Counted from the stretch's first letter, positions 3,694 through 55,230 are shown. The stretch is DNA of 64,000 nt from Candidatus Woykebacteria bacterium RBG_13_40_15 (GCA_001816655.1 MHCP01000015.1:6485-70484); one strand, 5' to 3'. Program-made: numbers and translations. Notes: generated from the sequence alone by a model not told the origin.

Positions 3694-4296
3694 TTAACTA
3701 GTAAGTTTATGCAATCCGTTTAACAAGACTTCGCCAAAAGTATCAATCCAGGTAGTTTTGGGTATTTCGCGATACGGAATATAGCGGGCCAGCATTTGTT
3801 GGATTTTTTCCTTATCGTCCTTATTAACTAAAATGAAAAGGCGACGAGGCCAATTTAGAAAGGTATCGATATGTAGGATAGTGAAACCATTTTTTTCCGT
3901 AAACCAAAAATCATCAAGTTCCTGCCAAATATAGCTATAATTACCGTTATTTATACCTTGACTAGTAATTGAATTGTTGACTATTTCTGGTGGAACGGTA
4001 GCTAGACTGTAGGCGACGAAAACCAAAGCTAATACAGGAATAATAATAAAAAACTCTCTTACGAAAAGGAGAATCAGTATTATTGTCGCGAGCAACAAAA
4101 AGGTGTAGATGTACCACTTCGCACTACGCCTAGTATAGGTTCGGGAAAAAGATTGCCATCGGAACAGGGTTTTGACTGTCTTCCTTTTATCGGATTGTGA
4201 GCCATTCTCAAGTTCAGAAATCTTTCCTTGTAAGGAAGCTAACTCTGATTTTAATTTTCCTAATGTTTTCTCTCTATCCGGCATTTTTTCCCTCAA
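3694..4296 (-). CDS. hypothetical membrane protein with N-terminal coiled coil
   Basis: ORF with two adjacent TM helices. Confidence 0.3.
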   Translation of the reverse strand: MREKMPDREKTLGKLKSELASLQGKISELENGSQSDKRKTVKTLFRWQSFSRTYTRRSAKWYIYTFLLLATIILILLFVREFFIIIPVLALVFVAYSLATVPPEIVNNSITSQGINNGNYSYIWQELDDFWFTEKNGFTILHIDTFLNWPRRLFILVNKDDKEKIQQMLARYIPYREIPKTTWIDTFGEVLLNGLHKLTS

Positions 4297-4369: not shown

Positions 4370-4459
4370 TGGCGGAGAGGGTGGGATTCGAACCCACGAT
4401 AACATTGCTGCTATACCGGTTTTCAAGACCAGCGCCTTAAACCGCTCGGCCACCTCTCC
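4370..4459 (-). tRNA. tRNA-Ser (anticodon TGA)
   Basis: Reverse complement GGAGAGGTGGCCGAGCGG...CTTGAAA loop...GGTTCGAATCCCACCCTCTCC-G-CCA. Long variable arm, G73 discriminator, CCA encoded. Confidence 0.9.
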
Positions 4460-4692: not shown

Positions 4693-4782
4693 TGGCGGAG
4701 GAGGTGGGATTCGAACCCACGTGAGCCTCTCGGCTCGCAGGTTTAGCAAACCTGTGCACTGGACCAACTATGCGACTCCTCC
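4693..4782 (-). tRNA. tRNA-Ser (anticodon GCT)
   Basis: Reverse complement GGAGGAG...CAGGT-TTGCTAA-ACCTG...long variable arm...GGTTCGAATCCCACCTCCTCC-G-CCA. Confidence 0.85.
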
Positions 4783-4834: not shown

Positions 4835-5527
4835 TCAACGCGACAGGTAATTTTTATGGGAGCTTGCTAGTATCAAAGCCCAGATATTACCAGCACCTTT
4901 TCTCTTTAGTACTTTTGTAACTTCTCTAACGGTCGCTCCTGTCGTCCAGACATCATCAAAAACCAAATAGTTTTTGCTGCGAACTTCGGCTTCTTTTGTA
5001 ATATCAAAAGAATTAGTAACCTCGATTAGTCTCTCCTTCTTGGGAAGTGTTGCCTGAGGTTTTGTTTGTTTTGTCTTAATTAAGATGTTGGGATCAAAAT
5101 CTATTCCTAGTAGGGAGGCGATTTTACGACCCAAAATTTCAGTTTGATTAAATCCCCTCCACCTTTTTTTATTTGAGGAAACTGGAATGGGAACTAGAAA
5201 ATACTGTTTAAAATTGTGGTTTGCTAGGTTTTTAGATTTTTTAGTTTCCTCAATGATTGTTGTTTCTAAATCAGTGGTAAATCTGTATTTCAATTGTCCA
5301 ATCAAATCTTTAATTGGGCTTGAGTATTGAAATAGACAAACTAAACCATCTAGACTATATCTTGTTTTGCATTTTGGGTGTGTTGTTCCTCCAATGGCAG
5401 CCTTTAGGCAGACGGGACAAAATTGCTCTGTTGGCTTTATTTTCAATCTATCGTTTTCACAAAGATATGTGCCGAGGCTGCTGCAAACGACACATCTTTT
5501 GGGAAAGATAAGGTCAAGTAAGCCCAT
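4835..5527 (-). CDS. comF: ComF-family phosphoribosyltransferase-domain protein
   Basis: N-terminal double zinc ribbon (CVVC...CPVC, HPKC) and C-terminal PRTase motif LVFDDVWTTGAT. Confidence 0.7.
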   Translation of the reverse strand: MGLLDLIFPKRCVVCSSLGTYLCENDRLKIKPTEQFCPVCLKAAIGGTTHPKCKTRYSLDGLVCLFQYSSPIKDLIGQLKYRFTTDLETTIIEETKKSKNLANHNFKQYFLVPIPVSSNKKRWRGFNQTEILGRKIASLLGIDFDPNILIKTKQTKPQATLPKKERLIEVTNSFDITKEAEVRSKNYLVFDDVWTTGATVREVTKVLKRKGAGNIWALILASSHKNYLSR

Positions 5528-5638: not shown

Positions 5639-5996
5639 TGGTGGAGATGCCCGGCTCTTCCCCGGGGTCCGAAAAGATAACTTACTAGAGAAACTACAAG
5701 CTTAGTCAACATTTAATTTCAGTTTAGGCCTACTAGTTGACGAGCCAGCCTAAACCTAGGTCGCAAGTCTAACTTTCCATAGAAGAACCGGTTCTACAAA
5801 AAGCCTCTTAGCAAGGGTTGCGCCTTGCCATCTCCGCTAAGATAGAGAAACGACAAGACGGCTCATTACGCTACTGCGTATTGAGCGGAAAATGCTTTGT
5901 TGGCATTTATTAGGTTGATCGGAATTTTAACGGTGGTCCCGATCGACACCGGCTTGCTCTTTAGCTAGAGTCTTCCCGTCGAATATATACATCCCC
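5639..5996 (-). ncRNA. ssrA: tmRNA (SsrA)
   Basis: Minus-strand 5' end GGGGATGTATATATTCGACGGG pairs with 3' end CATCTCCACCA, giving a 7-bp acceptor stem with a G3-U wobble, the AlaRS identity element. A T-arm-like CCCGG-GGAAGAG-CCGGG is present. Internal tag ORF is ...GCC AAC AAA GCA TTT TCC GCT CAA TAC GCA GTA GCG TAA TGA, reading ANKAFSAQYAVA then a double stop. smpB is adjacent. Confidence 0.8.
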
Positions 5997-17080: not shown

Positions 17081-18763
17081 ATGTTCCTGCCCAAAAAATT
17101 TGTACTTACATTGGTAGCCGCGATTTCTGCCTTTTTTTTGTTTGGCGCGCCTGTTTTTGCGCTTGAGCAATCAATCACTTCTACAACCCCTAGTGCAACT
17201 ACCTCTGTAGGAGGCGGGCAAGTTATGGGTTGGCAGAGTGCTGTTGGTGATTTTTTTGGAGATGTCGCGGGGGGTATGATGAGTACCGCGACGAAACTCA
17301 TGGGTCAAGCTCTAGATACGGCATTAGACCACTTTTTAATTAAGGGTGCAACTGGGTGCTTATCCTCCGACAAGGGTTGCCAGCAGGAACAAGTTCAGGA
17401 GGTTATGAATGGAACGCCGATTGAAAAAATGAGCAATCCGGGTTTTCTTCATGTTTTAGCTTCCGGTGGGGACCAGCTTATGACTATGCCAATACCAATA
17501 GATACCGGTACCTATTTCGCCTCGATTAACCCTTTTAAACAGGCGCAGGCTGCTGACACTGGTTTTGATGAACTTCAAAGATCGACCGGATTATTGCGCC
17601 TTTGGGTAGTCTTGAGAAACTCTGCCTATGCCCTGTCTGTACTTGTCCTTGTAGTCATTGGCTTTATGATCATGCTTCGGGTGCCGCTTGATCCACGCAC
17701 AGTGGTTACGGCGCAGAGTGCAATCCCAAGGATAATTATTGCCCTTATTTTAATTACGTTTAGTTTTGCGATCGCCGGCCTGTTTCTTGACTTTGGCAGG
17801 CTAGCGGTCCAATCGGTTCATTGGGTATATGGCCAAGTTGGTATTAGTTGGGGCGGAGCCTTGTTGAAGCTTATCGGGGTAATTGTTTTTGGTAGCGCAT
17901 CAATTGGAGCTATCATGGGGTTTGGCCTGCCGGGATTTATTCTTGGAGCGGTAATCGGCGTCATAATCGTTGGGGCGGTCCTTCTGTATCTTTATTTCAA
18001 AATGATTTCTCGGTTTGCCCAATTCGTCGTTCTCTCTATATTCGCGCCAATGGTTTTCTTATATGCCGCTGTTCCCGGACAAACAAGCGCTGCTACAAAT
18101 TGGTTCAAGCGTCAGCTCTCCAATATTCTCGCCACACCGGCCATACTTTTCATGGTCGCCCTAGCTCTTGTTGTAATTAATACCGGTATCCCTAACCCCC
18201 TGTATCGTGGTAACCCTTTTAATCTAGCCGATAGCTTTACTCCATTTTTAGTCGCGTTTGGTATCTTGTTTGCCGCGACACGTGCTCCGGAAATAGTCGA
18301 TGATTTACTTGGTCTAAAGAAAGCGCCCGGAGCTAACGCAGGGTTGACTGGCGCTACACTTATGGGTGGTCTAACCACAGCAACTAGAAATAAAGAACTC
18401 ATAAAGGGTGTTGGATCGCGACTTGCCGGCGGACCGCTTGGAAAGGCGGCTGGTGCCGCCGCTGCACCCCTTCGGGCTGGCGCAAATAAGCTCACAGGTG
18501 GTTACTTCGACCGAAGAGCAGAAAGGGCTAGAGATGACAGAGCTCTTAAGCTGGCAAAGGCGAGTTATGATGAGCAACAAAGAAGAGATCGAGGAACGGA
18601 ACTTTTAAAACAACAGGGTTATATTAAAGGAGAAAAGGGAGAGCAGGGAGAACAAGGAGAGCAGGGAGAACAAGGAGTCTCACTTATCAATCCTGGGCCT
18701 CAATACCCTGCAAAGCCAGCGGGAGGTGGGACAAGCCAGGAGGATCAAAATCAAAATACATAG
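17081..18763 (+). CDS. VirB6/TrbL-like polytopic membrane protein with C-terminal collagen-like GEQ repeats
   Basis: Signal peptide and at least 6 TM helices in the central region. C-terminal GEKGEQGEQGEQGEQG is encoded by a tandem 18-nt DNA repeat at about 18628-18675. Confidence 0.45.
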   Translation: MFLPKKFVLTLVAAISAFFLFGAPVFALEQSITSTTPSATTSVGGGQVMGWQSAVGDFFGDVAGGMMSTATKLMGQALDTALDHFLIKGATGCLSSDKGCQQEQVQEVMNGTPIEKMSNPGFLHVLASGGDQLMTMPIPIDTGTYFASINPFKQAQAADTGFDELQRSTGLLRLWVVLRNSAYALSVLVLVVIGFMIMLRVPLDPRTVVTAQSAIPRIIIALILITFSFAIAGLFLDFGRLAVQSVHWVYGQVGISWGGALLKLIGVIVFGSASIGAIMGFGLPGFILGAVIGVIIVGAVLLYLYFKMISRFAQFVVLSIFAPMVFLYAAVPGQTSAATNWFKRQLSNILATPAILFMVALALVVINTGIPNPLYRGNPFNLADSFTPFLVAFGILFAATRAPEIVDDLLGLKKAPGANAGLTGATLMGGLTTATRNKELIKGVGSRLAGGPLGKAAGAAAAPLRAGANKLTGGYFDRRAERARDDRALKLAKASYDEQQRRDRGTELLKQQGYIKGEKGEQGEQGEQGEQGVSLINPGPQYPAKPAGGGTSQEDQNQNT

Positions 18764-18822
18764 CAAAATGGGGTCACTTCTCGCATTACTGCTTAAAGCA
18801 ACCCCATGTGTGATCACCTCCT

Positions 18823-21681
18823 TTACACTGCTGGCACTACAAGTGGGCTACCGTTTCCCCTAGGCACCCACTTCCTGCCATAATACTGCCCTTGCTCCAA
18901 GAGATAGGGAATTGTTCCCCCAACTATCTTTATCTCCTCGTTGGTCCATCTACCCTCAATGTCTAAGAGAACCTTCTCGGGACTCGTTCTCCCAAAATTG
19001 AGAGCTGCGGCTCCAAGCAACGGCTGGACAACTTCCTTCGCAACCGTCTGTATATCCTCCCACTCTTCAAACGTACCGTCCATGATCTTCCCTGCGATCA
19101 AACCCTGTGCCTTTTCCGGGCTCTGCTGGTAGTAGTTGAAGCCAAGGACCTTGGCCAAGCGGCTCTGAGCTAGGAAACTAGCCGATTGTTTAGGGAGCCT
19201 GATCACATGGAATCTCTTTGCTTGCTGTACCTTTGGATCGTGGATGCTTAGCCCCCGACGATATGCCCCTTCCAGCAAACGAAGCGCCATTGGAAGGCTG
19301 GCTTGCTTAAGCTCGCCATCATTGCCATTGGCCAACTCTATCAGCACAGCATCTGCGAAATCGTCGGCTACCTCAAGCCTTTTTGCAGCGAAGTTGCGCC
19401 AGTCCGGCCGACCATCTCCCTCAAGCCATGGCTGTCCTGCCAAATCCGCTCGGTATCCTTTACGGAGATCGGTTTCCCCCATGTCCTCATTTTCTTGGGC
19501 TTGCCTATCTATCAGGGCTTGCTTAGGAGCGAGTGGCTGTCTATTCCACATGAGTAACAGCATATTCCCAAATTGGGTGTAGCTGGGTCTAGCTGGGTCG
19601 TTGCTGGTCCAGCGACTAAACCGGACATTTTCTTCCGACCCAAAAGCCATGGGCGAGCGGAATCTCTGGTTCGTTTTATCCACGAGGGACATGAATACAA
19701 TCCCATCGTAGGTTTCCCACAGCCATTTGGGATCGTCCGTAGCCAGGTCTATTTTCTGGAGGGCCCAGAGGAACTCGTTGGGGTAGTTCATTACCTTCGC
19801 CAAATCTCTGTCCACCCCAGTTGCACCTCGGGGTGGAAGAACCCCCCAAATCGCTTGGCCGCAATAGCTCCAGATCATCTCCAAACCCGACTGAAAAGCC
19901 AAGTGAGCATCAAAGATCTCCCTAGCTAGGGAGTTTCCGTGGTCTCTTTCCTCAAAGGGATCCTTCATCATCCAGTAGGGACCGAGGATCCTTTCTCTCA
20001 CAGCCTGGATCGTCTCTTCCTCCGTCGGCGCTCTGTTGTCGTGGCCTTCTTTCCACCCCGCTAACCAGCGCGGACCGAGATACTCTAACCGCTCCTCTTG
20101 GCTCCTTCCGCTCACCTCTTCGGCGAGCTTGTAGAGCCGCATGAAACGATCGTTGTACTTCCACTCAAGTGGCGGCCGTGGCCCTCCAGCGTCATTGTCG
20201 CACGCTTGGGCGTTCACTGCTTCAGTAAGGCCTCCCTGACCACGCTTTGTACGCATGCTCCTCGCCATCTGCCAGGCTCTAATGATTCGGACGATGTCGC
20301 GCAAGACCTCGAAAGGCGCGGCGAACATCTTCATTGCCTCCCAATTCAACCCATCCGGGGTAAGGACCGGAGGCTCAATCAGGTGGAAGTAAAAGCCAAC
20401 CAGTGTCCATAGCTTGTCGGCCTTTTGCTCCCAGGTAACGGCTTGTATGTTCCAGACTGATTGCCAGATCTTCCTGAGCTGGTTTAGCTCCGTTAGGTTC
20501 ATCCAGTCGTATTCCTCATTGAGAAGATTCTCGAAGCCGCCCTGAACAGGAAGACAACTTAGGGCAGCCCTGACCGGATCAACCTCTAGGGCATCGAAGT
20601 CTGCTTCTGGGCCCGCCCCACTCTCTTGGAACTTTGTTCGTTCCTGTTCCTTTATCTTCTGCAGGCCTTCGTAGACCTGCCGAGCAGTAACAAACTCCAA
20701 TGCCACCTCAAGGTGAACGCGGTAGTAAAGCGCCCCCTCGGTTTCCAGCCAGCCGGGTACGCAAAGCTTGCCCCCTATTTTCATAAATGGCAGGGGCGGT
20801 GGAACATCCTCAGTCTCTGGATCGTACCGCTCTTTGATTAGAGAGGGGTCCCGAAGAGCTCTGAGGAGGTCGAAATCCAAAGAGTCCCCTGTGACTGGAT
20901 TGGCGTAGCCTCTGTAGCAGTAGGGGACATACGTCTTCTCCTTAGGCCGCCTTTCCACGCTAGCAGGGTCTCTGCGGTAGTCCTCGATTAGCTTCCACCT
21001 CCTCTCCAACTCCTCGTTGTACCGCTTTTCCAACCGGGCCTTTGGCACCATGTGGAACGGTTGGCGAGGGCTTTGGGAGTAGGCCTCTTCTATAATCGGG
21101 GTCAGGACCCAGTAGCGAACTCGCTGAATTTCACCTAGGAATTTGTAGGTTTCGTCTCCGAGAGAGAACGTGTGGAATTTTCTATATGCCTTTCTCTCCC
21201 TACTGCCCTCCTCTCCACTCTGGAGACGTTTTTCGTAGTGCTCCCCCCATCTCTCCTGATGGGTAGCGAAGGCCCCCCTCATTCCCTCTGGCAAGTGGCC
21301 CAAGAACATCGGCTCGCCCTTCACCATACGGTAGATGTTGCCTTTATCATCCAGAAGGACGTGGGCTTTTTTTCCCTTCTTAGGCGACCACTCAAGGTCC
21401 AGCCTTTTGTACAAACTTTCCAGATCCTGTGGCTTCGTGGTCCTCCACATCCATACCGGCACGTAGATTCGGATCCCCTTCTGTGAGAAGAACTCCAGTA
21501 GCCTGTCGATTATCCTTGTCGTTATGGCTTGAAGTAGTGCCCACTCAGAGCTGAAGGGAAACCTTCTGCCTCCCGCATAGTCTTCGTCCTGCAACCAAGT
21601 CCTGTCGGTTACCCGAACACCGCTTGTGGCAGCTTGTTCCTCTTCCTCTTCTTGAAAGTCCGTGTCGTTCATCATTGTCAT
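18823..21681 (-). CDS. large hypothetical protein (952 aa) in GC-rich island 1
   Basis: Long uninterrupted ORF. Local GC is markedly higher than flanks. No recognisable catalytic motif by eye. Acidic N-terminus, Trp-rich. Confidence 0.6.
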   Translation of the reverse strand: MTMMNDTDFQEEEEEQAATSGVRVTDRTWLQDEDYAGGRRFPFSSEWALLQAITTRIIDRLLEFFSQKGIRIYVPVWMWRTTKPQDLESLYKRLDLEWSPKKGKKAHVLLDDKGNIYRMVKGEPMFLGHLPEGMRGAFATHQERWGEHYEKRLQSGEEGSRERKAYRKFHTFSLGDETYKFLGEIQRVRYWVLTPIIEEAYSQSPRQPFHMVPKARLEKRYNEELERRWKLIEDYRRDPASVERRPKEKTYVPYCYRGYANPVTGDSLDFDLLRALRDPSLIKERYDPETEDVPPPLPFMKIGGKLCVPGWLETEGALYYRVHLEVALEFVTARQVYEGLQKIKEQERTKFQESGAGPEADFDALEVDPVRAALSCLPVQGGFENLLNEEYDWMNLTELNQLRKIWQSVWNIQAVTWEQKADKLWTLVGFYFHLIEPPVLTPDGLNWEAMKMFAAPFEVLRDIVRIIRAWQMARSMRTKRGQGGLTEAVNAQACDNDAGGPRPPLEWKYNDRFMRLYKLAEEVSGRSQEERLEYLGPRWLAGWKEGHDNRAPTEEETIQAVRERILGPYWMMKDPFEERDHGNSLAREIFDAHLAFQSGLEMIWSYCGQAIWGVLPPRGATGVDRDLAKVMNYPNEFLWALQKIDLATDDPKWLWETYDGIVFMSLVDKTNQRFRSPMAFGSEENVRFSRWTSNDPARPSYTQFGNMLLLMWNRQPLAPKQALIDRQAQENEDMGETDLRKGYRADLAGQPWLEGDGRPDWRNFAAKRLEVADDFADAVLIELANGNDGELKQASLPMALRLLEGAYRRGLSIHDPKVQQAKRFHVIRLPKQSASFLAQSRLAKVLGFNYYQQSPEKAQGLIAGKIMDGTFEEWEDIQTVAKEVVQPLLGAAALNFGRTSPEKVLLDIEGRWTNEEIKIVGGTIPYLLEQGQYYGRKWVPRGNGSPLVVPAV

Positions 21682-42541: not shown

Positions 42542-44492
<1,951 letters not shown>

Positions 44493-44500
44493 GCAGATAT

Positions 44501-44523
44501 CAGAAAGCAGACAGCAGTAAGCG
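44501..44523. repeat. CAGAAAGCAG...CAGTAAGCG motif at left edge of GC-rich island 2
   Basis: cagaaagcagacagcagtaagcg shares a 10-mer and a 9-mer with the repeat at 22365-22395. Confidence 0.5.
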
Positions 44524-44632
44524 TTAGAAGTAGGCCTTAGGAACCTCAAAGCCTGTAGTTCTCCACTCGTTTCGGATAATTTTGATCTTCCCATAAATTT
44601 TTAACTTGAGAAAAAATGTGAAAACTAGGACA

Positions 44633-44666
44633 GTCAGGGGAACCTCGGTTTGGAAGTTCCCCTGAC
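44633..44666. terminator. strong hairpin downstream of minus-strand 295-aa ORF (11-bp stem GTCAGGGGAAC/GTTCCCCTGAC)
   Basis: Perfect 11-bp stem, 12-nt loop, and T-rich trailer on the minus strand. Confidence 0.5.
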
Positions 44667-44677
44667 GAGTGCGTGAA

Positions 44678-45565
44678 CTAGCTTTTCTTGACTAGCTTGC
44701 CGTGCGGTCTCCAGGAGGAAGGCCGGCCTTGTGTTATGACCTCAACCATTCTTGTTGGCCACTCTGTCCCGAATTGTAGGAGACGGCCGAATCCGAGACG
44801 TAGGGCCGTAGGTTTGTCTGGAAGCAACAACGGAAGCTCCTCGGGGTTTATTTTCTCACCCTCCCTGTAGAAAGCTGCATGGTGCTTTACTGGGCAGACT
44901 AGCAGTACTCTCTTGAGGAAGAAGAATGCGACGAAATGGTCCTCTCTATTGAGGCAGCGGACCAAATAAGTCGCCTCTGGTGCTAAGCCCCAAGGTATGG
45001 TTAGTCGCTTAGGATCCGTGGCCGAGTGCTGTTGCCAGGTAAAGACACCCCAGTGCTTCGTATATACCCTCCCCTCACTGTCGATTTTCACCACTTCCAT
45101 CAGGTCTGGTACCGGAGCGCGGGTGAGCGGGCCGGTCCCAACTAGCGGCGGCTGGCGGATTGGGGGCAGATCGTCCAAATGGAGACAGCCGATAAAGGGC
45201 CGCTTCTCTGGCCAGGTTTCCATTCCTTCCACTGCCCCAAAAGGTAGTACCTCTCTTCCAAACAGGATTTCCGAACCCTGCTTGAAAGTTCCAAACGTCG
45301 CTCCGTTGTCAGGATTGGGAAAGCCGAATCTACCAGAGGGTGAAACTCGGCAAAACCGGGTTGGAAGGCGCGCTCTTAGACATCTCTGATAGTAAAGACG
45401 TTCCATCCATGTCGGGGCTTGACCAAGACTCTGAACAAGTTCCCAGACATCCGACTCCCCCAGTAGCCATAGCCTATAGCGAAGCTCAAGATCTTCATCG
45501 GGCATGATCAGTAGGTGTGCGCCACTTGATGTAACCAGGTGAAACGTTAATTTGGCGGGCGGCAT
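44678..45565 (-). CDS. hypothetical protein (295 aa), GC-rich island 2, candidate retron accessory/effector
   Basis: Long ORF with island-like GC content. No recognisable motif. Confidence 0.5.
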   Translation of the reverse strand: MPPAKLTFHLVTSSGAHLLIMPDEDLELRYRLWLLGESDVWELVQSLGQAPTWMERLYYQRCLRARLPTRFCRVSPSGRFGFPNPDNGATFGTFKQGSEILFGREVLPFGAVEGMETWPEKRPFIGCLHLDDLPPIRQPPLVGTGPLTRAPVPDLMEVVKIDSEGRVYTKHWGVFTWQQHSATDPKRLTIPWGLAPEATYLVRCLNREDHFVAFFFLKRVLLVCPVKHHAAFYREGEKINPEELPLLLPDKPTALRLGFGRLLQFGTEWPTRMVEVITQGRPSSWRPHGKLVKKS

Positions 45566-45737
45566 GACGTTCCCTCCTTGGATTTGAACTCTCCTTAACT
45601 ACAATCTCCACTCCAACTGTTAAATATATTAAAACTTTTTTTGTAGCTGTCAAGCGGCTTTTAGCTAAAAAGTACCTTATTAATAAGCGAAGTTGAAAGT
45701 TGCAGATAAAACCATATTTATCTAAAATGTTATTGCT

Positions 45738-46223
45738 ATGGGGAAATTTGAGGCTTTGACACCAGAACAAGTAAGACAATTTGAAAAAGAAGCAGTTAAA
45801 AGATTTAACCACGAGGAAAACGATCATCCACATGTTGAACCCCAGGTGGGATCACTTGAGCTGGCCCGCTTTAAGGCCGTTTTTCCTTTCCAACTTTTTC
45901 CAGACGAGTTGATAGTCGAGGAAAAAAGAGTGATTTGGATTCATCGTTTTGGCCCACGAATGTGCGAGGTAATTACTCTTTTACCCTCCGATATAAATAG
46001 AGTCGAAGCTTCCACCGGCCCTCTCTTTGGCCATCTTCATGTCTCTATACCAAGGCACGATATTGAGATTCTTATCGACCGTCTTAAACGAAACGACGCT
46101 CTCTTTGCCCGTGATTTAATTGATGGTCTAGCTACAGCAGCCAGACAAAACCTAGCGATAGAAGGCGAAACTGCGCAAGAAAAAGTAGATTTTCTTCTCC
46201 GTCTTTCCCACGTGAGTGTCTAA
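45738..46223 (+). CDS. hypothetical protein (161 aa) immediately upstream of retron-like ncRNA, candidate effector
   Basis: Same strand as the RT, ending about 40 nt before the a1 repeat. No recognisable motif. Confidence 0.5.
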   Translation: MGKFEALTPEQVRQFEKEAVKRFNHEENDHPHVEPQVGSLELARFKAVFPFQLFPDELIVEEKRVIWIHRFGPRMCEVITLLPSDINRVEASTGPLFGHLHVSIPRHDIEILIDRLKRNDALFARDLIDGLATAARQNLAIEGETAQEKVDFLLRLSHVSV

Positions 46224-46262
46224 ACCTTGACCGAAAAAGCCCTAAATGATATAAAGACACTA

Positions 46263-46388
46263 ACTTGGGCTAGAGCTTAAGTGGCCCCAAATTGGCCCGC
46301 ACCGTCAGATGGCTGACTGGTGTAAACGGGAAGGCTGGCGCCTCGTTCCCGGCGCGCGTTTACCAGCCCGAACTTGAGTAGCCCAAGT
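46263..46388 (+). ncRNA. retron-like msr/msd non-coding RNA bracketed by a1/a2 inverted repeats
   Basis: Perfect 10-bp inverted repeat ACTTGGGCTA (46263-46272) and TAGCCCAAGT (46379-46388). The enclosed region has a GGCC hairpin and a long imperfect stem GACTGGTGTAAACGGGAAGGCTGGCGCC / GGCGCGCGTTTACCAGCC. It lies directly upstream of a retron-type RT. Confidence 0.55.
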
Positions 46389-47432
46389 GAGGATGGGGCT
46401 GCCGTACTAGCTAATAGCGCGGCAGCCCCTAGAAAATGGAGAGCGATAATGAGATCAATAGAGCCAGTTATATTCTCCAGCGGAGAAGGACGATTCCCAG
46501 CGGAGGGTTTGGAGGTTGACTATAATAGGTTCGGATTCAACCCCCTAGTCTACCTCGGGTTCCTAATAGGTATACCAACAAGGTGGATCGATTACGTAAT
46601 AAAAATCGGTGCCGACAACTTCTACACCGAAGTTAGGATACCGAAAAAGGGTGGTGGGGTGAGGGTTCTTCAAGTACCCCTAGATCCCTTAATGGGTATT
46701 CAGAGAAGGATTCTTCGCAAGGTTCTAAGCCAACTAGAGCCCAAGAGCTCCTGCCACGGCTTTGTTACTGGTAGATCGATAATTACCAATGCCCAAGTCC
46801 ATGTCGGATCAACGCACATGCTTGTCCTCGATCTGGAAAGTGCATTTGATCAAGGCCTGTCTAGTCGAATCTTTAGAGAGCTCTGGGGAGAGAGGGTTGG
46901 CGAGAGGAGGCTTGGATTTCTGGTCGCCTCCTTGATAACACAGCTCTGTACAGTATACAGCGGGGATATTGGAGAACGGTACGGGTTTCGGCACCTTCCT
47001 CAGGGAGCACCAACCTCACCAGCGCTCTTTAATCTTGCTTGCCGTCCGTTGGATGGAAGACTGGACCACTTCGTATGGAGAATCGGTGGGGTTTACACAC
47101 GCTATGCGGACAACCTTGCTTTCTCCGTTCCTAGACAACTGACCCCCAAGGAGGAGCATATAATTCGGAAGATAGTAGATGGGAGTGGTTTCAGAGTTAA
47201 CGATGCCAAAACGAGGTTGATGCGCCAAAGCGGGCACTCGATCCTGCGTCTTCCAGGGGTCGCTATCAACAACGGAAGGATAATACTTCCCAAGAGGAAG
47301 AGAAAGCAGCTGCGGGCAGCAATTTACCTAGCCGCCTTGCATGGAGAGACAGATAGGCTTCGGGGACTAATAGGCTTTGTGGAGCAGGTGTACGGCCCCG
47401 AAGTCCCAAGACAAATAATCGGTAGTCACTAG
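46374..47432 (+). CDS. retron-type reverse transcriptase (motif C reads YADN)
   Basis: RT motifs present: IPKKGGGVRVLQVP (motifs 1-2); HGFVTGRSIITNAQVH carrying the retron-specific VTG and NAxxH; LDLESAFD (motif A); LPQGAPTSPALFNLA (motif B); YTRYADNLAF (motif C with the second Asp replaced by Asn). The likely true start is ATG at 46449, which has a GGAGAG ribosome-binding site. Confidence 0.8.
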   Translation: MSSPSEDGAAVLANSAAAPRKWRAIMRSIEPVIFSSGEGRFPAEGLEVDYNRFGFNPLVYLGFLIGIPTRWIDYVIKIGADNFYTEVRIPKKGGGVRVLQVPLDPLMGIQRRILRKVLSQLEPKSSCHGFVTGRSIITNAQVHVGSTHMLVLDLESAFDQGLSSRIFRELWGERVGERRLGFLVASLITQLCTVYSGDIGERYGFRHLPQGAPTSPALFNLACRPLDGRLDHFVWRIGGVYTRYADNLAFSVPRQLTPKEEHIIRKIVDGSGFRVNDAKTRLMRQSGHSILRLPGVAINNGRIILPKRKRKQLRAAIYLAALHGETDRLRGLIGFVEQVYGPEVPRQIIGSH

Positions 47433-47433
47433 T

Positions 47434-47464
47434 AGCGGGCTCGCTTCCACAAACCGAGCCCGCT
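47434..47464. repeat. boundary hairpin AGCGGGCTCG-loop-CGAGCCCGCT (island 2, just after RT stop)
   Basis: 10-bp stem with 11-nt loop. Same stem sequence family as 21973-22003. Confidence 0.6.
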
Positions 47465-47605
47465 CACCGTAGTTAATATCCCATAATAATTATATATTCA
47501 AATTTATCTCTGACTTTGAATCAAATTACCCTTGCTTACTTCTTTACAAAAATTAACGAAAACTTTCCACCAAGGCCCTTTTATTTGCTACAATTAAATT
47601 GATAT

Positions 47606-48880
47606 ATGATTATAAAAAACTTCGATCAGCTTTCAATAAACTCTTTGAGAAACCACGCCTTGCAAATTACAGAAGCAGGTTTCGAGGCAATTGATACGGA
47701 AACGGTCATCAAAGAATCAGTGAAATTAACAAATGGAACTCTCCAGATTAAAGATAGGCAATTTGACCTGAAAAAATTTGAGCATATTTACCTAATTGGG
47801 GTTGGGAAAGTCGCTTTTGCGGCTGGGAAAGCTTTAGAAAAAATGTTGGGTAATTATATAACCGATGGGATAGTTTTAGATGTTCAAGGTGGAAAATTAA
47901 AAAAATTAAAAAGCTTAATTGGTACACACCCCTTGGCTTCCCAAAAAAATGTTTTAGCTACTAAAGAAATAATTTCACTTCTGAAAAAAGCAGGGAGAGA
48001 GGATCTAATTTTGGCAGTTATTTCTGGCGGAAGTAGCGCTCTTTTGTGCGCCCCACATAAAATCTCGTACGAAAAAATCGCTGAAATTTTCGAAGTTATG
48101 ACAGGTACGGGTGCAACTATTGAGGAAATCAATATAGTGAGGAAACATCTTTCCGAAATAAACGGCGGCGATCTTGCGAAGCTGACCTACCCAGCCACCA
48201 TCATCTCACTGATTTTCTCCGACGTGCCGGGTGATGATTTAGACACAATTGGTTCTGGGCCGACTGTTTTAGATAGTTCAACAACGGCGGATGCGCAAGC
48301 ACTAATTGAAAAATACAATGTTTTAAAAGAGGCCAAACTTAGCAAGGTTGAGTTTACGGAAACCCCAAAGAATCCTATTTACTTTGAAAAGGTTGCAAAT
48401 ATTATTGTTGTTAACAGTAAACGCGCCGTAGATGCCATGGCTAAGAAGGCGGCAGAGTTAAATTACAAAGTTAGTATTTTTAGCACACAAGTACAAGGAG
48501 AAGCTTCGGATGCCGGCCAGAAACTTTTGGCTAGCGCTGAGGATAAGACAGCAGTTTTGGCAGCCGGCGAAACTACAGTTTCAATAAAAGGAGATGGAAT
48601 CGGGGGGCGTAATCAACACCTTGTTTTATCGGCCCTGAAGCATCTTAAAGAAGATCAAGTTATTATTTCGGCCGACAGCGACGGGGTTGATCACAGCCGG
48701 TTTGCCGGTGCAATTGGTGATAAAGAGACTGTTAAAAAAGCGATCGGGAAAAAGATTTCAATAGAAAAATACTTGGATAACTTTGACTCATTTAATTTTT
48801 ACCGAGTTGTAGAAGACGGTATCGAGACAGGCCCTTTGGAATCCAACGTGTCTGATTTCATGCTGGTTTTATCTGCCTAG
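47606..48880 (+). CDS. glycerate 2-kinase (MOFRL family)
   Basis: LAAGETTVSIKGDGIGGRNQHLVLSA and VGKVAFAAG motifs of GckA/TtuD-type glycerate kinases. Confidence 0.7.
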   Translation: MIIKNFDQLSINSLRNHALQITEAGFEAIDTETVIKESVKLTNGTLQIKDRQFDLKKFEHIYLIGVGKVAFAAGKALEKMLGNYITDGIVLDVQGGKLKKLKSLIGTHPLASQKNVLATKEIISLLKKAGREDLILAVISGGSSALLCAPHKISYEKIAEIFEVMTGTGATIEEINIVRKHLSEINGGDLAKLTYPATIISLIFSDVPGDDLDTIGSGPTVLDSSTTADAQALIEKYNVLKEAKLSKVEFTETPKNPIYFEKVANIIVVNSKRAVDAMAKKAAELNYKVSIFSTQVQGEASDAGQKLLASAEDKTAVLAAGETTVSIKGDGIGGRNQHLVLSALKHLKEDQVIISADSDGVDHSRFAGAIGDKETVKKAIGKKISIEKYLDNFDSFNFYRVVEDGIETGPLESNVSDFMLVLSA

Positions 48881-52956: not shown

Positions 52957-53030
52957 GGCGTGGTGGTCGAGTGGTTAGACACGGGTCTGCAAAACCTGTC
53001 ACAGCGGTTCGAATCCGCTCCACGCCTCCA
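52957..53030 (+). tRNA. tRNA-Cys (anticodon GCA)
   Basis: GGCGTGG acceptor. Anticodon stem-loop CGGGT-CTGCAAA-ACCTG. T-arm GCGGTTCGAATCCGC. 3' end CCACGCC-T-CCA. Confidence 0.85.
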
Positions 53031-53050
53031 AAGCCCGGGCTAATAAATAT

Positions 53051-53079
53051 CCTCTAGTAATTGACATAGTGTTATTTTT
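53051..53079 (+). promoter_or_regulatory. consensus sigma70-type promoter (TTGACA-17 nt-TATAAT)
   Basis: TTGACA at 53051-53056 and TATAAT at 53074-53079 with an exact 17-nt spacer. Drives a roughly 300-nt leader before the first island 3 ORF. Confidence 0.6.
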
Positions 53080-53390
53080 CTGGTATAATACAACTTGTTC
53101 TTTGAAATATTAGAAAAGTTACAGGTCTCGAAAGGCATCTAGTAACTGGTAATAATTGTATTTGTAACTGTCACTGTTAAAAACCTTGAAGTAAATGCAC
53201 ATTAAAACCAGTTACCAGGTGCCTTTATTGTGCCGCGGAGCTTTATGCGAAGTGGCATTGGTACCAGTACCTTGAAAATTACTCCTTACAAACTCTCCTT
53301 CACTTGGGCTCGCTCATATTGTTCTTAAATTTATTTTGAGAACAGTTAGAGCGGCTTGCTCAAGCATTACAATACGAAGGAGGTTGTGAC

Positions 53391-53831
53391 GTGACAGCCC
53401 GTCTAGTCAAAGGCGTGTACGGTACGTATCTGGCCCCTTTTGAAGGCCCCTTCGGCCTTCGCTATGGGCAACGCAGGAAGTGGTACATCCACAACAATGC
53501 TGGGTGGTACAATTCTGAAGGCGAGAAGTTAGGATGGGGCGATCTCAACATTGAGGATATTCAACGAATCGCTTCGGAGCTCCTGCCCGGCGAGGTGTTC
53601 ATCATCCTCAGTGAGCAGGACACTTCCTGGCAGCACGACCGAATGGATGCTCCCGGGATCGAGTACTGTGCTTTCAAATGCCACTGTATTATCCTTCCAG
53701 GGAAGGTATACAAGGTGGTGGGGCATGAATACGAAACCGCGGACGAGGACGTGGAGGATCAAGGGCTCGCCGTAACCCTAGTTTCTCGCTCTCGTGCAAG
53801 GGAGCTTCTCAGCCAGCCTACCAACGCCTAG
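53391..53831 (+). CDS. hypothetical protein (146 aa), GC-rich island 3
   Basis: GTG start preceded by GAAGGAGG. GC-rich codon usage unlike the host. No recognisable motif. Confidence 0.5.
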   Translation: MTARLVKGVYGTYLAPFEGPFGLRYGQRRKWYIHNNAGWYNSEGEKLGWGDLNIEDIQRIASELLPGEVFIILSEQDTSWQHDRMDAPGIEYCAFKCHCIILPGKVYKVVGHEYETADEDVEDQGLAVTLVSRSRARELLSQPTNA

Positions 53832-53945
53832 ACAACAGCAAGGAGTAAGCGATGTGTAGTCCAAATCAAGCAGCGATGTTTGAAGAGGCACAAGTACCAT
53901 CGTAAACTTCTTAAGGAAATCATGGTTCGATAAACTCACCACAAG

Positions 53946-54401
53946 TTGGTTTTCTTAGGAGAGATCATGAACAACGTGAGTTCGTGGTCTGTAGTCAAGG
54001 AGGGAGAGATGAGTACCTTAGAAGCGCAGTTAATGGACGCTACCTTCGATTGGCGTCACCGCATACTACACCACCGTGATGGAACGTGCGGCGCCTCGGC
54101 GCGTGACCTGGAGACCGGCTCGCTTTATTGCCCTGCCGAGGCGTCCAGGGCACCGCCTGATCGGATCATCAAGGAGGCGGGCAGGGAGTACACAGAGCCA
54201 CTCCCTTGCCTCACCAGAATCCTCGTTCGGCTCGCTCGTTTAGATGCCGAAGCGAGGATATTTGCCACCGGCTTCCTCAGCTTCTGCGAGAATGCCGGAG
54301 TTCCCAAGGTCGCAGCGGAGGCTATCTGGGAAGCCGCAGTTCAGCAGACCGAGGATTATCTTGCTAGGTCAAAGAGCCTCGACGAGCTTAACGCCGAGTA
54401 A
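53946..54401 (+). CDS. hypothetical protein, GC-rich island 3 (likely start ATG 53967)
   Basis: AGGAG RBS at 53956-53960 and ATG at 53967. No recognisable motif. Confidence 0.5.
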   Translation: MVFLGEIMNNVSSWSVVKEGEMSTLEAQLMDATFDWRHRILHHRDGTCGASARDLETGSLYCPAEASRAPPDRIIKEAGREYTEPLPCLTRILVRLARLDAEARIFATGFLSFCENAGVPKVAAEAIWEAAVQQTEDYLARSKSLDELNAE

Positions 54402-54658
54402 GATCGTCCGTCTTCCTAGCGATTACGGACACGGCTACGGTTTGGCGGTTTCGGCAAAGGCATTGCCTTGTCTCTTCCGCCATGTCGTGACGAACGGCAA
54501 AAACAAAAAGTTGGTCAGGCAAAACCGTTCTACCTGGCCGTAAAAACAACGGTGCGAAGGCCTCTTGAGGCATGCGTGGGAAGGAGCAGACATATGCAAT
54601 GTTTGTTTCCTTCCCTTCCCTGAGCAAATCAAGAAATTGGTTTTCTTAGGAGGAGACG

Positions 54659-54684
54659 CGACCTGAAAGGGTCGTTTTTCTTTT
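54659..54684 (+). terminator. putative Rho-independent terminator (CGACC-TGAAAG-GGTCG then TTTTTCTTTT)
   Basis: Short GC stem followed by a T-run. Lies within a roughly 360-nt non-coding stretch. Confidence 0.35.
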
Positions 54685-54766
54685 CCGAGGAGTTTGCAAG
54701 GCCCGTCCTTGCAGCTTCGACACAACCATTTCCCATTTTAATTCTTTGTGTTAAAATTACTCCGCC

Positions 54767-55015
54767 ATGGAAAAAGTCCAAAAGATCAAGGTTTTAAAAT
54801 ACACCGCCATTTTTGAACCAGATAAAGAAACTGGCGGTTACACTGTAACTATCCCAGCGTTACCTGGCTGTATTTCCGAGGGCGATACTTTTGAAGAGGC
54901 GTTAAAAAATATTAAAGAAGCAGCTGAGCTTTACCTGGAAGTTTTGAAAGAAGAGAAAGAGGAAATACCAGTCGAAGAAAACCCCGTCGTGGCGCCAATT
55001 GAAGTTAGAGTATGA
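54767..55015 (+). CDS. hicB: HicB-family antitoxin
   Basis: KYTAIFEPDKETGGYTVTIPALPGCISEGDTFEEALKNIKEA is the UPF0150/HicB RNase-H-like fold signature. Confidence 0.75.
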   Translation: MEKVQKIKVLKYTAIFEPDKETGGYTVTIPALPGCISEGDTFEEALKNIKEAAELYLEVLKEEKEEIPVEENPVVAPIEVRV

Positions 55016-55230
55016 CCAAACTCCCTGCTGTAAAACCAAAGGAACTAGAAAGGGTTTTATTAAAAGCCGGTTTTAAATTTGTCCGTCAAAAGGGAAGCCA
55101 CAGAATGTACGTCAGAGGAATTTATAAGGTTGTCGTTCCCTACCACAACAAAGATCTAAAGAGTGGCACCCTGAGAAATATCCTTAAGCAAGCCAACCTT
55201 CCTCCGACACAATTATCCAAAATTCTTTAG
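55012..55230 (+). CDS. hicA: HicA-family mRNA interferase toxin
   Basis: PKELERVLLKAGFKFVRQKGSHRMY is the YcfA/HicA signature with catalytic His. Overlaps the hicB stop by 4 nt. Confidence 0.75.
   Translation: MTKLPAVKPKELERVLLKAGFKFVRQKGSHRMYVRGIYKVVVPYHNKDLKSGTLRNILKQANLPPTQLSKIL

Follow-up and report, generated by a model that had tools for sequence, protein, structure and literature searches.

Retrons are studied as phage-defence systems and as genome-editing tools, and most of what is known of their diversity derives from Proteobacteria and other cultivated phyla. In the definition used here (Mestre et al. 2020, PMC7736814), the non-coding RNA (ncRNA) of a retron is closed by a terminal a1/a2 duplex next to which stands an unpaired G, and it contains one to three msr hairpins and a template hairpin that ends at a2; among the described types, the defining marks of type XIII are a characteristic ncRNA and a winged-helix/SWIM protein, which a HEAT/ARM protein usually accompanies (PMC7736814). 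The locus analysed here lies in a stretch of 64,000 nucleotides (nt) of Candidatus Woykebacteria bacterium RBG_13_40_15, a member of the Candidate Phyla Radiation (CPR, Patescibacteria), and this whole stretch is called the window. A preliminary description had proposed a retron-like element made up of an ncRNA, a retron-type reverse transcriptase (RT) and two adjacent open reading frames (ORFs), possibly in a CPR-type genome; the host was confirmed through the RT, which is 100% identical to the hypothetical protein A2172_00935 of this organism and has ORF295 (A2172_00925) and ORF161 (A2172_00930) as its neighbours. Positions 46227–47464 probably constitute a self-contained 1.24-kb retron core cassette, located immediately 3' of the host gene ORF161 and encoding no effector, and it is just as probable that a promoter of its own drives a single transcript comprising a 126-nt msr-msd, a stabilising hairpin and the RT frame. 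The most interesting features, both unseen in the preliminary description, are the membership of the RT in a clade with a YxDN instead of a YxDD catalytic box and the minimal cassette without a conserved partner.

The reverse transcriptase and its closest relatives

The RT (327 aa) is encoded on the plus strand at 46449–47432 and contains RVT_1 (1.5e-18) as its only Pfam domain. Its frame had been proposed to begin at 46374 or 46449; the real start is the ATG at 46449, with a GGAGAG ribosome-binding site at 46438–46443, and the TTG at 46374 falls within the RNA element. The signature string CHGFVTGRSIITNAQVH is present in the frame as claimed, and the retron signatures NAxxH and VTG (46755–46802, plus strand) were found in HGFVTGRSIITNAQVH. 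NAxxH was present in all 120 relatives checked, and at the position of the exact VTG of the window RT the clade relatives carry VxG, VRN or TKG. The motif A Asp lies in LDLESAF, and the other polymerase motifs are intact (LPQGAPTSP and others). All of the top 25 PADLOC matches were retron RT models, with RT_other as the best profile (5.2e-56, 188.8 bits), followed by RT_outgroup (2.5e-54), RT_XIII (2.9e-54) and RT_III-A (1.6e-53). Among the NCBIfam models, retron_St85 matched at 4e-44, a score under the cut-off of that model, and among solved structures the best matches were the RTs of retrons Ec67, Ec86, Ec83, Ec78 and Eco8 (1e-24 to 1e-11), the first group II RT following only at 6e-9. On these profile and structure-sequence matches the RT is assigned to the retron lineage, as the preliminary description had proposed, and in the profile comparison that it had called for, the group II and Drt2 models scored far lower than the retron models.

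A non-retron origin, in which the RT would be of the group II intron, diversity-generating retroelement (DGR), or Abi/unknown-group (UG) defence-associated RT (DRT) type and the inverted repeat upstream of it incidental, is extremely improbable. It could draw on weak NCBIfam matches to the group II RT (1.6e-10) and Drt2 (1.4e-8) models and on the report that about 80% of the RTs in CPR genomes are DGR RTs (PMC8632793). However, the retron models outscored those of group II and Drt2 by more than 30 orders of magnitude, the group II intron model TIGR04416 reached 40.7 bits against a cut-off of 300, and the RT of 327 aa, with RVT_1 only, has no maturase or endonuclease extension. No Rfam intron RNA and no template/variable repeat pair were found, the longest direct repeat in 44400–47700 being 18 nt at 78% identity, no CRISPR array was detected in the window, and the upstream RNA co-varies across loci (see below). 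We therefore set the non-retron alternatives aside, since retron matches dominate and template/variable repeats, intron RNA and CRISPR arrays were not found.

Within the retron lineage, the scores of the RT were scattered across several type profiles with no clear winner, so that it fits no single described retron type, in agreement with the earlier suggestion of an undescribed type. The preliminary description had missed that motif C of the RT (47103–47114, plus strand) reads Y-A-D-N (RYADNL) and not YADD; the canonical YxDD box is thus missing. The closest relatives of the RT (P0002–P0007, P0009, P0010 and P0070) share only 33–50% identity with it, and the next matches are ordinary retron RTs from Myxococcota, Acidobacteriota, Planctomycetota and Cyanobacteria. 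YxDN is confined to the 10 closest of the 120 best matches, of which 109 carry DD. It was found in none of 80 GTDB retron loci, all of which carry DD although the search pattern permitted either residue, and in none of the 79 motif-C matches from 80 IMG/VR retron loci, all of which were DD. The ten YxDN RTs were monophyletic in 30 of 30 neighbour-joining bootstraps of the 61 closest RTs. Members of the clade have different best type profiles (XIII, III-A, other), which indicates that the clade as a whole fits no described type; by sequence it is a small, unclassified, monophyletic branch of retron RTs. Profile scans of genomes and viral contigs for further clade loci returned only generic YADD retrons with at most 40% identity, scans of metagenome contigs returned nothing, and a literature search turned up no paper dealing with YADN RTs, with CPR/Patescibacteria retrons or with any retron type beyond XIII.

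An RNA with the priming geometry of retrons

The RNA was compared among five loci, namely the window and four loci that encode clade RTs (L002, L006, L007 and L008). In the window, a putative σ70 promoter (46227–46255, plus strand), read by eye, is located just 3' of the ORF161 stop codon and consists of TTGACC (46227–46232), a 17-nt spacer and TATAAA (46250–46255); it was omitted by a consensus promoter scan because that scan demands a T at position 6 of the −10 element. From its position, transcription is predicted to start at about 46262, at the first bases of a1, and comparable −35/−10 pairs were seen by eye just 5' of a1 in L007 and L008. The a1 arm (ACTTGGGCTA, 46263–46272, reaching 46260 with one mismatch) pairs in minimum-free-energy folds with a2 (TAGCCCAAGT, 46379–46388, reaching 46391; both on the plus strand); the perfect 10-bp inverted repeat previously reported was recovered and could be extended to 13 nt at 92%. 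Since perfect inverted repeats of 10 bp or more with a spacing of 60–350 nt arose in only 18 of 2000 dinucleotide-preserving shuffles (0.9%) of the 225-nt intergenic region, the repeat exceeds chance expectation.

From a1 to a2 inclusive the RNA measures 126 nt in the window, and its elements follow one another in the order a1, G46273, small hairpin, 9-bp hairpin, imperfect hairpin, a2, extra hairpin and ribosome-binding site, all on the plus strand. The predicted branching (priming) G at 46273 is unpaired and directly 3' of a1 (...GGCUA-G-AGC); a G after an a1 ending in CTA was found in five of the five loci and is unpaired in the folds. By analogy with retron biology (PMC7736814), G46273 would provide the 2'-OH primer. 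It is followed by an msr-like part (46274–46322) that contains a small hairpin predicted by folding (GGCC 46283–46286 / GGCC 46294–46297) and a conserved 9-bp hairpin with the tetraloop ATGG (CACCGTCAG-ATGG-CTGAC(T)GGTG, 46300–46322), which has tetraloop-bearing counterparts in L002, L007 and L008 and is 100% paired, with 5 of its 9 pairs changed on both sides. An msd-like template region (46317–46378) was read from the sequence; it comprises an imperfect hairpin (CTGGTGTAAACG...CGTTTACCAG, 46317–46366), whose inner stem is GGGAA/TTCCC, and the bases just 5' of a2. This hairpin has 7+4 outer and 5–6 inner pairs and is not the choice of minimum-free-energy folding, and its counterparts in L002, L007 and L008 are also short. 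At the 5' end of the imperfect hairpin of the window, bases are shared with the 3' strand of the 9-bp hairpin, so that the two are alternative pairings. Between a2 and the ribosome-binding site of the RT, a strong hairpin (GGGGCTGCCG...CGGCAGCCCC, 46395–46429; −28 kcal/mol, z = −4.9) has counterparts in L002 (4013–4056), L007 (2286–2315) and L008 (6573–6601), 5 of the 7 outer pairs having changed in a compensatory manner; possible roles are in processing, stability or attenuation.

The 225-nt spacer folded better than 200 of 200 shuffles (z = −4.4). In L002, L006, L007 and L008 an inverted repeat of differing sequence closes the RNA 5' of the RT, the distance between the arms being 106 nt in the window and L002 and 213–299 nt in the others. 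The a1/a2 duplex closes the fold both in the short forms (z = −3.7 in the window and −4.0 in L002) and in the long forms (z = −6.4 in L007 and −5.9 in L008). As automatic MAFFT alignments mis-registered a1, the three shared helices, namely a1/a2, the 9-bp hairpin and the hairpin after a2, were instead aligned by hand as blocks. In this alignment 96.5% of the cells pair and 17 of 26 pairs are changed on both sides, a count that is supportive rather than proof given the hand-chosen blocks and the five sequences; for the a1/a2 helix, 7 of 10 pairs show compensatory changes across the five loci. The observed values were reached by none of 500 shuffles, and slid registers paired at 30–48%. The upstream RNA thus co-varies and has the priming geometry of a retron, and the fold prediction suggested in the preliminary description yielded a conserved structure bracketed by a1/a2, with an unpaired G after a1 in all five loci.

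Several observations weigh against a functional retron core. The YxDN box departs from the catalytic box of every other retron RT examined here, so that the RT could be impaired. Classic retrons have a long and stable msd stem, whereas the msd-like hairpin seen here is a short, imperfect one that is in competition with the conserved msr hairpin for the GGTG bases; no retron or other Rfam family was detected in 44000–48000, even at E ≤ 10; and the block alignment, which covers five loci only, was assembled by hand around the proposed helices and therefore leans towards them. Furthermore, no effector is conserved beside the clade, and known defensive retrons require one.

The first two of these points would fit an RT that has been catalytically impaired or repurposed through the Asp-to-Asn exchange in motif C and forms with the ncRNA a ribonucleoprotein that might serve, for instance, in sensing or regulation but would make no multicopy single-stranded DNA (msDNA). 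The consistency of the exchange in the clade (10 of 10 members) speaks for this explanation, as does the fact that mutating the YxDD aspartates is the standard way of inactivating retron RTs. We nevertheless consider it quite unlikely. D128 of motif A and D221, the first Asp of motif C, which ligate the metals in RT structures, are invariant, the remaining polymerase motifs are intact, and natural xDN polymerase motifs are active, as exemplified by the GDN of mononegavirus L proteins. Moreover, the a1/a2 duplex with its adjacent unpaired G, a geometry needed only for 2'-OH priming, has been maintained through compensatory changes, which argues that DNA synthesis persists. With both aspartates retained, polymerisation has probably been kept, perhaps in an altered form, and the conserved Asn may alter metal binding or processivity.

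Neighbouring genes and the boundaries of the cassette

The cassette had been described as part of one GC-rich block of about 55% GC. This did not hold: GC contents are 53.9% for ORF295, 32.6% for the ORF295–ORF161 spacer, 43.8% for ORF161, 55.1% for the ncRNA region and 50.2% for the RT gene, compared with 42.4% for the whole window. A single contiguous GC island was therefore rejected in favour of two GC-rich cassettes, ORF295 and ncRNA+RT, separated by the host-like ORF161 that they flank. Segment composition shows that the GC content of the retron cassette climbs to 50–55% amid host-like flanks. Its organisation is cassette-like, with its own promoter at one end and, at the other, a hairpin (AGCGGGCTCGCTT / AACCGAGCCCGCT, 47434–47464, plus strand) located directly 3' of the RT stop codon, which likely marks the 3' end of both cassette and transcript; the RT stop codon in L002 is likewise directly trailed by an equivalent hairpin.

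The two adjacent ORFs without known function are present as previously reported, namely ORF161 (161 aa, 45738–46223, plus strand) and ORF295 (295 aa, 44678–45565, minus strand), neither of which matched Pfam, PADLOC or NCBIfam; their proposed role as candidate effectors fared differently. ORF161 resembles groEL and other host genes in composition (GC at third codon positions, GC3, 0.35), and 17 homologues were found. In the related loci L003 and L004, which have no RT, the gene order is NYN – groES – groEL – SurA_N – epimerase – ORF164 – HAD – DUF1684 – SBP_bac_5 – HisKA – M23, and the frame common to these loci and the window consists of NYN, groES, groEL, ORF161, SBP_bac_5 and HisKA. ORF161 was rejected as an effector because its syntenic position is the same in relatives that lack an RT and its composition is host-like; it is a host gene and does not belong to the retron.

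ORF295 is an independent transcription unit on the minus strand (44633–45655), GC-rich, with its own promoter (GCTTGACAG...TAATAT, 45655–45626, found by promoter scan), a coding sequence (45565–44678) behind an AAGGAGGGA ribosome-binding site, and a terminator-like hairpin (44633–44666). No second copy of this promoter/terminator signature was found elsewhere in the window. Searches of Pfam, PADLOC, NCBIfam, PHROGs and a PDB sequence profile, as well as tblastn against phages and plasmids, gave no match for ORF295, and its AlphaFold2 model (predicted local distance difference test, pLDDT, 80) gave no fold match. One close homologue (51% identity) was found, and a scan of 1.8 billion representatives with a hidden Markov model of the family recovered the query and 8 other proteins at E ≤ 0.001; in some members a C-terminal domain of about 140 aa is duplicated. 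The family genes keep their own promoter (GCTTGACAG, N17, TATTAT-like), the AAGGAGGGA ribosome-binding site and an GGGGAACC...GGTTCCCC hairpin, and every one of them is GC-rich against AT-rich flanks. Among the five family loci with available DNA, the gene is divergent from an ORF161 homologue in the window, L001 and L090, and from the HAD gene, which follows ORF161 in L003, in L089 and L091. In L001 only a 44-aa N-terminal remnant of ORF161 (795–929) is left, which is oriented divergently to the ORF295 homologue and precedes an M23 peptidase gene; since the M23 gene is about 5 kb from the ORF161 homologue in L003, a deletion in the L001 genome is implied.

ORF295 is a possible but unproven retron partner. 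In a tripartite retron it would be a two-domain effector of a new family, expressed from its own divergent promoter, restrained by the RT–msDNA complex and released on phage infection, which we regard as possible, though on balance improbable. ORF295 and the RT cassette are the sole GC-rich segments of the neighbourhood, flanking ORF161, and no other candidate partner was identified in the window with Pfam and PADLOC. Furthermore, the ORF295 family is extremely rare (9 proteins), yet it shares a contig with a clade RT twice: in the window and on a 4517-bp contig from the Joint Genome Institute (JGI), where 1.6 kb separate the family member P0144 from P0004, the RT that most resembles that of the window (48% identity). 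The arrangement differs between the two, however, P0144 and P0004 being convergent with three genes between them whereas ORF295 and the RT of the window are divergent with one gene between them. In addition, ORF295-family genes always stand beside the ORF161 or HAD gene of one Woykebacteria-type locus, and the RT of L002 is inserted between groEL and SurA_N, in the same chromosomal hotspot; as RT cassettes also enter that locus, the co-occurrence of ORF295 and RT may reflect a shared insertion hotspot. Clade RTs occur without an ORF295 relative in L002, L006, L007 and L008, as determined by BLASTP and profile comparison, and an ORF295 relative occurs without an RT across the 2.5 kb of L001. 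Remote-homology comparison of ORF295 with the GC-rich RT neighbours of L008 (316 aa) and L002 (202 aa and 138 aa) was negative. The separate promoter and terminator of ORF295, and the lack of any detectable toxin- or nuclease-like fold, also argue against an effector role.

No neighbouring gene is conserved among the clade loci (window, L002, L006, L007 and L008), and no known defence protein adjoins any clade member examined. In L006 the ncRNA and RT stand alone between housekeeping genes. In L007 (3–11276) the YxDN RT lies beside genes for a large serine recombinase, a TraG-like ATPase, TrbC, PrgI and a TraC-like protein; with a recombinase and type IV secretion/conjugation genes alongside, this copy rides on a conjugative-element-like segment. 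In L008 (8186–8874), a small WYL-domain protein and a Trypco2-domain protein, with domains typical of conflict/defence neighbourhoods, are encoded 3' of the RT. In L002, a 52-nt direct repeat with 94% identity (3826–3877 and 5276–5327) exactly brackets the ncRNA+RT unit of P0002, which shows that such a unit lends itself to acquisition as a discrete cassette. The repeat is a duplication of the promoter region of a neighbouring 207-aa gene together with its first codons and could be due to single-crossover acquisition or to a long target duplication. Its second copy also provides the T-run behind the RT terminator hairpin.

These data bear on whether the unit is an effector-less, semi-autonomous cassette of 1.2–1.4 kb that moves between intergenic sites of CPR genomes via a circular or cDNA intermediate and recombination and has no dedicated defence function. 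The exact bracketing in L002 would agree with such mobility, as would the solitary copy of L006, the copy next to a serine recombinase in L007, and a cassette GC content that is foreign in every host, without any conserved neighbour. We judge this explanation distinctly improbable all the same. Flanking repeats were found at this one locus only, with none detected in the window by a repeat search and none in L006, L007 or L008, and a single homologous crossover during horizontal transfer explains the L002 repeat equally well as retron-driven mobility would. The cassette has no integrase or endonuclease domain (the 327-aa RT contains RVT_1 only), and autonomous mobility has never been demonstrated for retrons (PMC7736814).

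Elsewhere in the window, a segment of about 2.2 kb with up to 51% GC (53031–55226) begins directly after a tRNA-Cys gene (52957–53030) and contains only short ORFs without Pfam match; it looks like an insertion at the tRNA gene, since the flanking M23 peptidase and PEGA/SH3 genes are adjacent in L003. The GC maximum of the window (49–56%) is reached at 17081–21681, where two ORFs of 560 aa (plus strand) and 952 aa (minus strand) have no Pfam match and a short 9/18-nt tandem repeat is present (18629–18677). A tmRNA gene (5639–5996, minus strand; Rfam, 134 bits) and two tRNA-Ser genes (4370–4459 and 4693–4782) were also found.

Proposed function and comparison with described retrons

If the locus works as established retron biology suggests, RNA and RT would be produced from a single transcript, and the RT, by analogy with characterised retrons, would bind the msr hairpins. 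The 2'-OH of the unpaired G46273 would then prime synthesis, and the RNA would be copied leftwards from 46378 into a short branched msDNA of a predicted 50–70 nt or so, complementary to the template. The output would most likely be phage defence, for which the separately transcribed ORF295 or a not-yet-recognised, possibly unlinked, partner would be required; alternatively, the clade may work differently, without such an effector. A more general reading, in which YxDN RTs define mostly CPR-borne minimal retrons of 1.2–1.4 kb that spread by themselves or function with ORF295 and whose altered active site yields an unusually short msDNA, appears unlikely to us.

A well-supported retron core in a Woykebacteria genome widens the host range of retrons, and the branch to which it belongs is unusual in three ways: the YxDN box, the compactness of its RNA (126 nt) and RT (327 aa), and the lack of a conserved effector. 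Should msDNA be made, the Asn variant would reveal for what purpose the second aspartate of motif C is required, and the compact cassette would be a candidate scaffold for editing. A proven role of ORF295 as partner would add a new effector family, and if no partner exists, the view of retrons as always three-part, toxin/antitoxin-like systems would be challenged.

The locus shares with described retrons the RT lineage, the NAxxH and VTG signatures, an adjacent a1/a2 ncRNA with msr hairpins and the position of the branching G. The effectors of types I–XII were searched for in the RT, ORF161 and ORF295, and none was found (ATPase with HNH or TOPRIM, nucleoside deoxyribosyltransferase (NDT)-like, phosphoribosyltransferase (PRTase), two-transmembrane (2TM), cold-shock, helix-turn-helix (HTH), DUF3800, HEPN, protease and TIR proteins). 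RT_other and RT_outgroup are the best PADLOC profiles, but the match spans only the C-terminal 260 of 407–481 profile positions, RT_other is not consistently the best profile across the clade, and both labels denote the lack of a type assignment and not a defined system.

The RT resembles those of type XIII (myxobacterial Mx162/Mx65-like retrons) in its match to RT_XIII, which is the best profile for several clade members, and many of the next-closest relatives are from Myxococcota or Pyrinomonadaceae; these, however, keep YADD. Type XIII RTs are also longer (about 470–510 aa with an N-terminal extension, against 327 aa in the window), and no winged-helix/SWIM or HEAT/ARM protein is encoded near the clade members of the window, L002 and L006–L008.

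Compared with Ec86 (type II-A) and Ec67, the RT of the window is only about 25–30% identical, has YADN in place of YADD, and occurs in a CPR host without an NDT-like, TOPRIM or other known effector, whether operonic or fused. The msd stem is short and imperfect, and, in a further departure from these retrons and from the textbook retron layout, a conserved extra hairpin stands between a2 and the RT start. At the same time the RT falls into the same sequence family as Ec86 and Ec67 (about 1e-24 over residues 49–314), and, as in these retrons, NAxxH and VTG are combined with an ncRNA that is located directly 5' on the same strand and has a1/a2 arms, msr and msd-like hairpins and an unpaired G.

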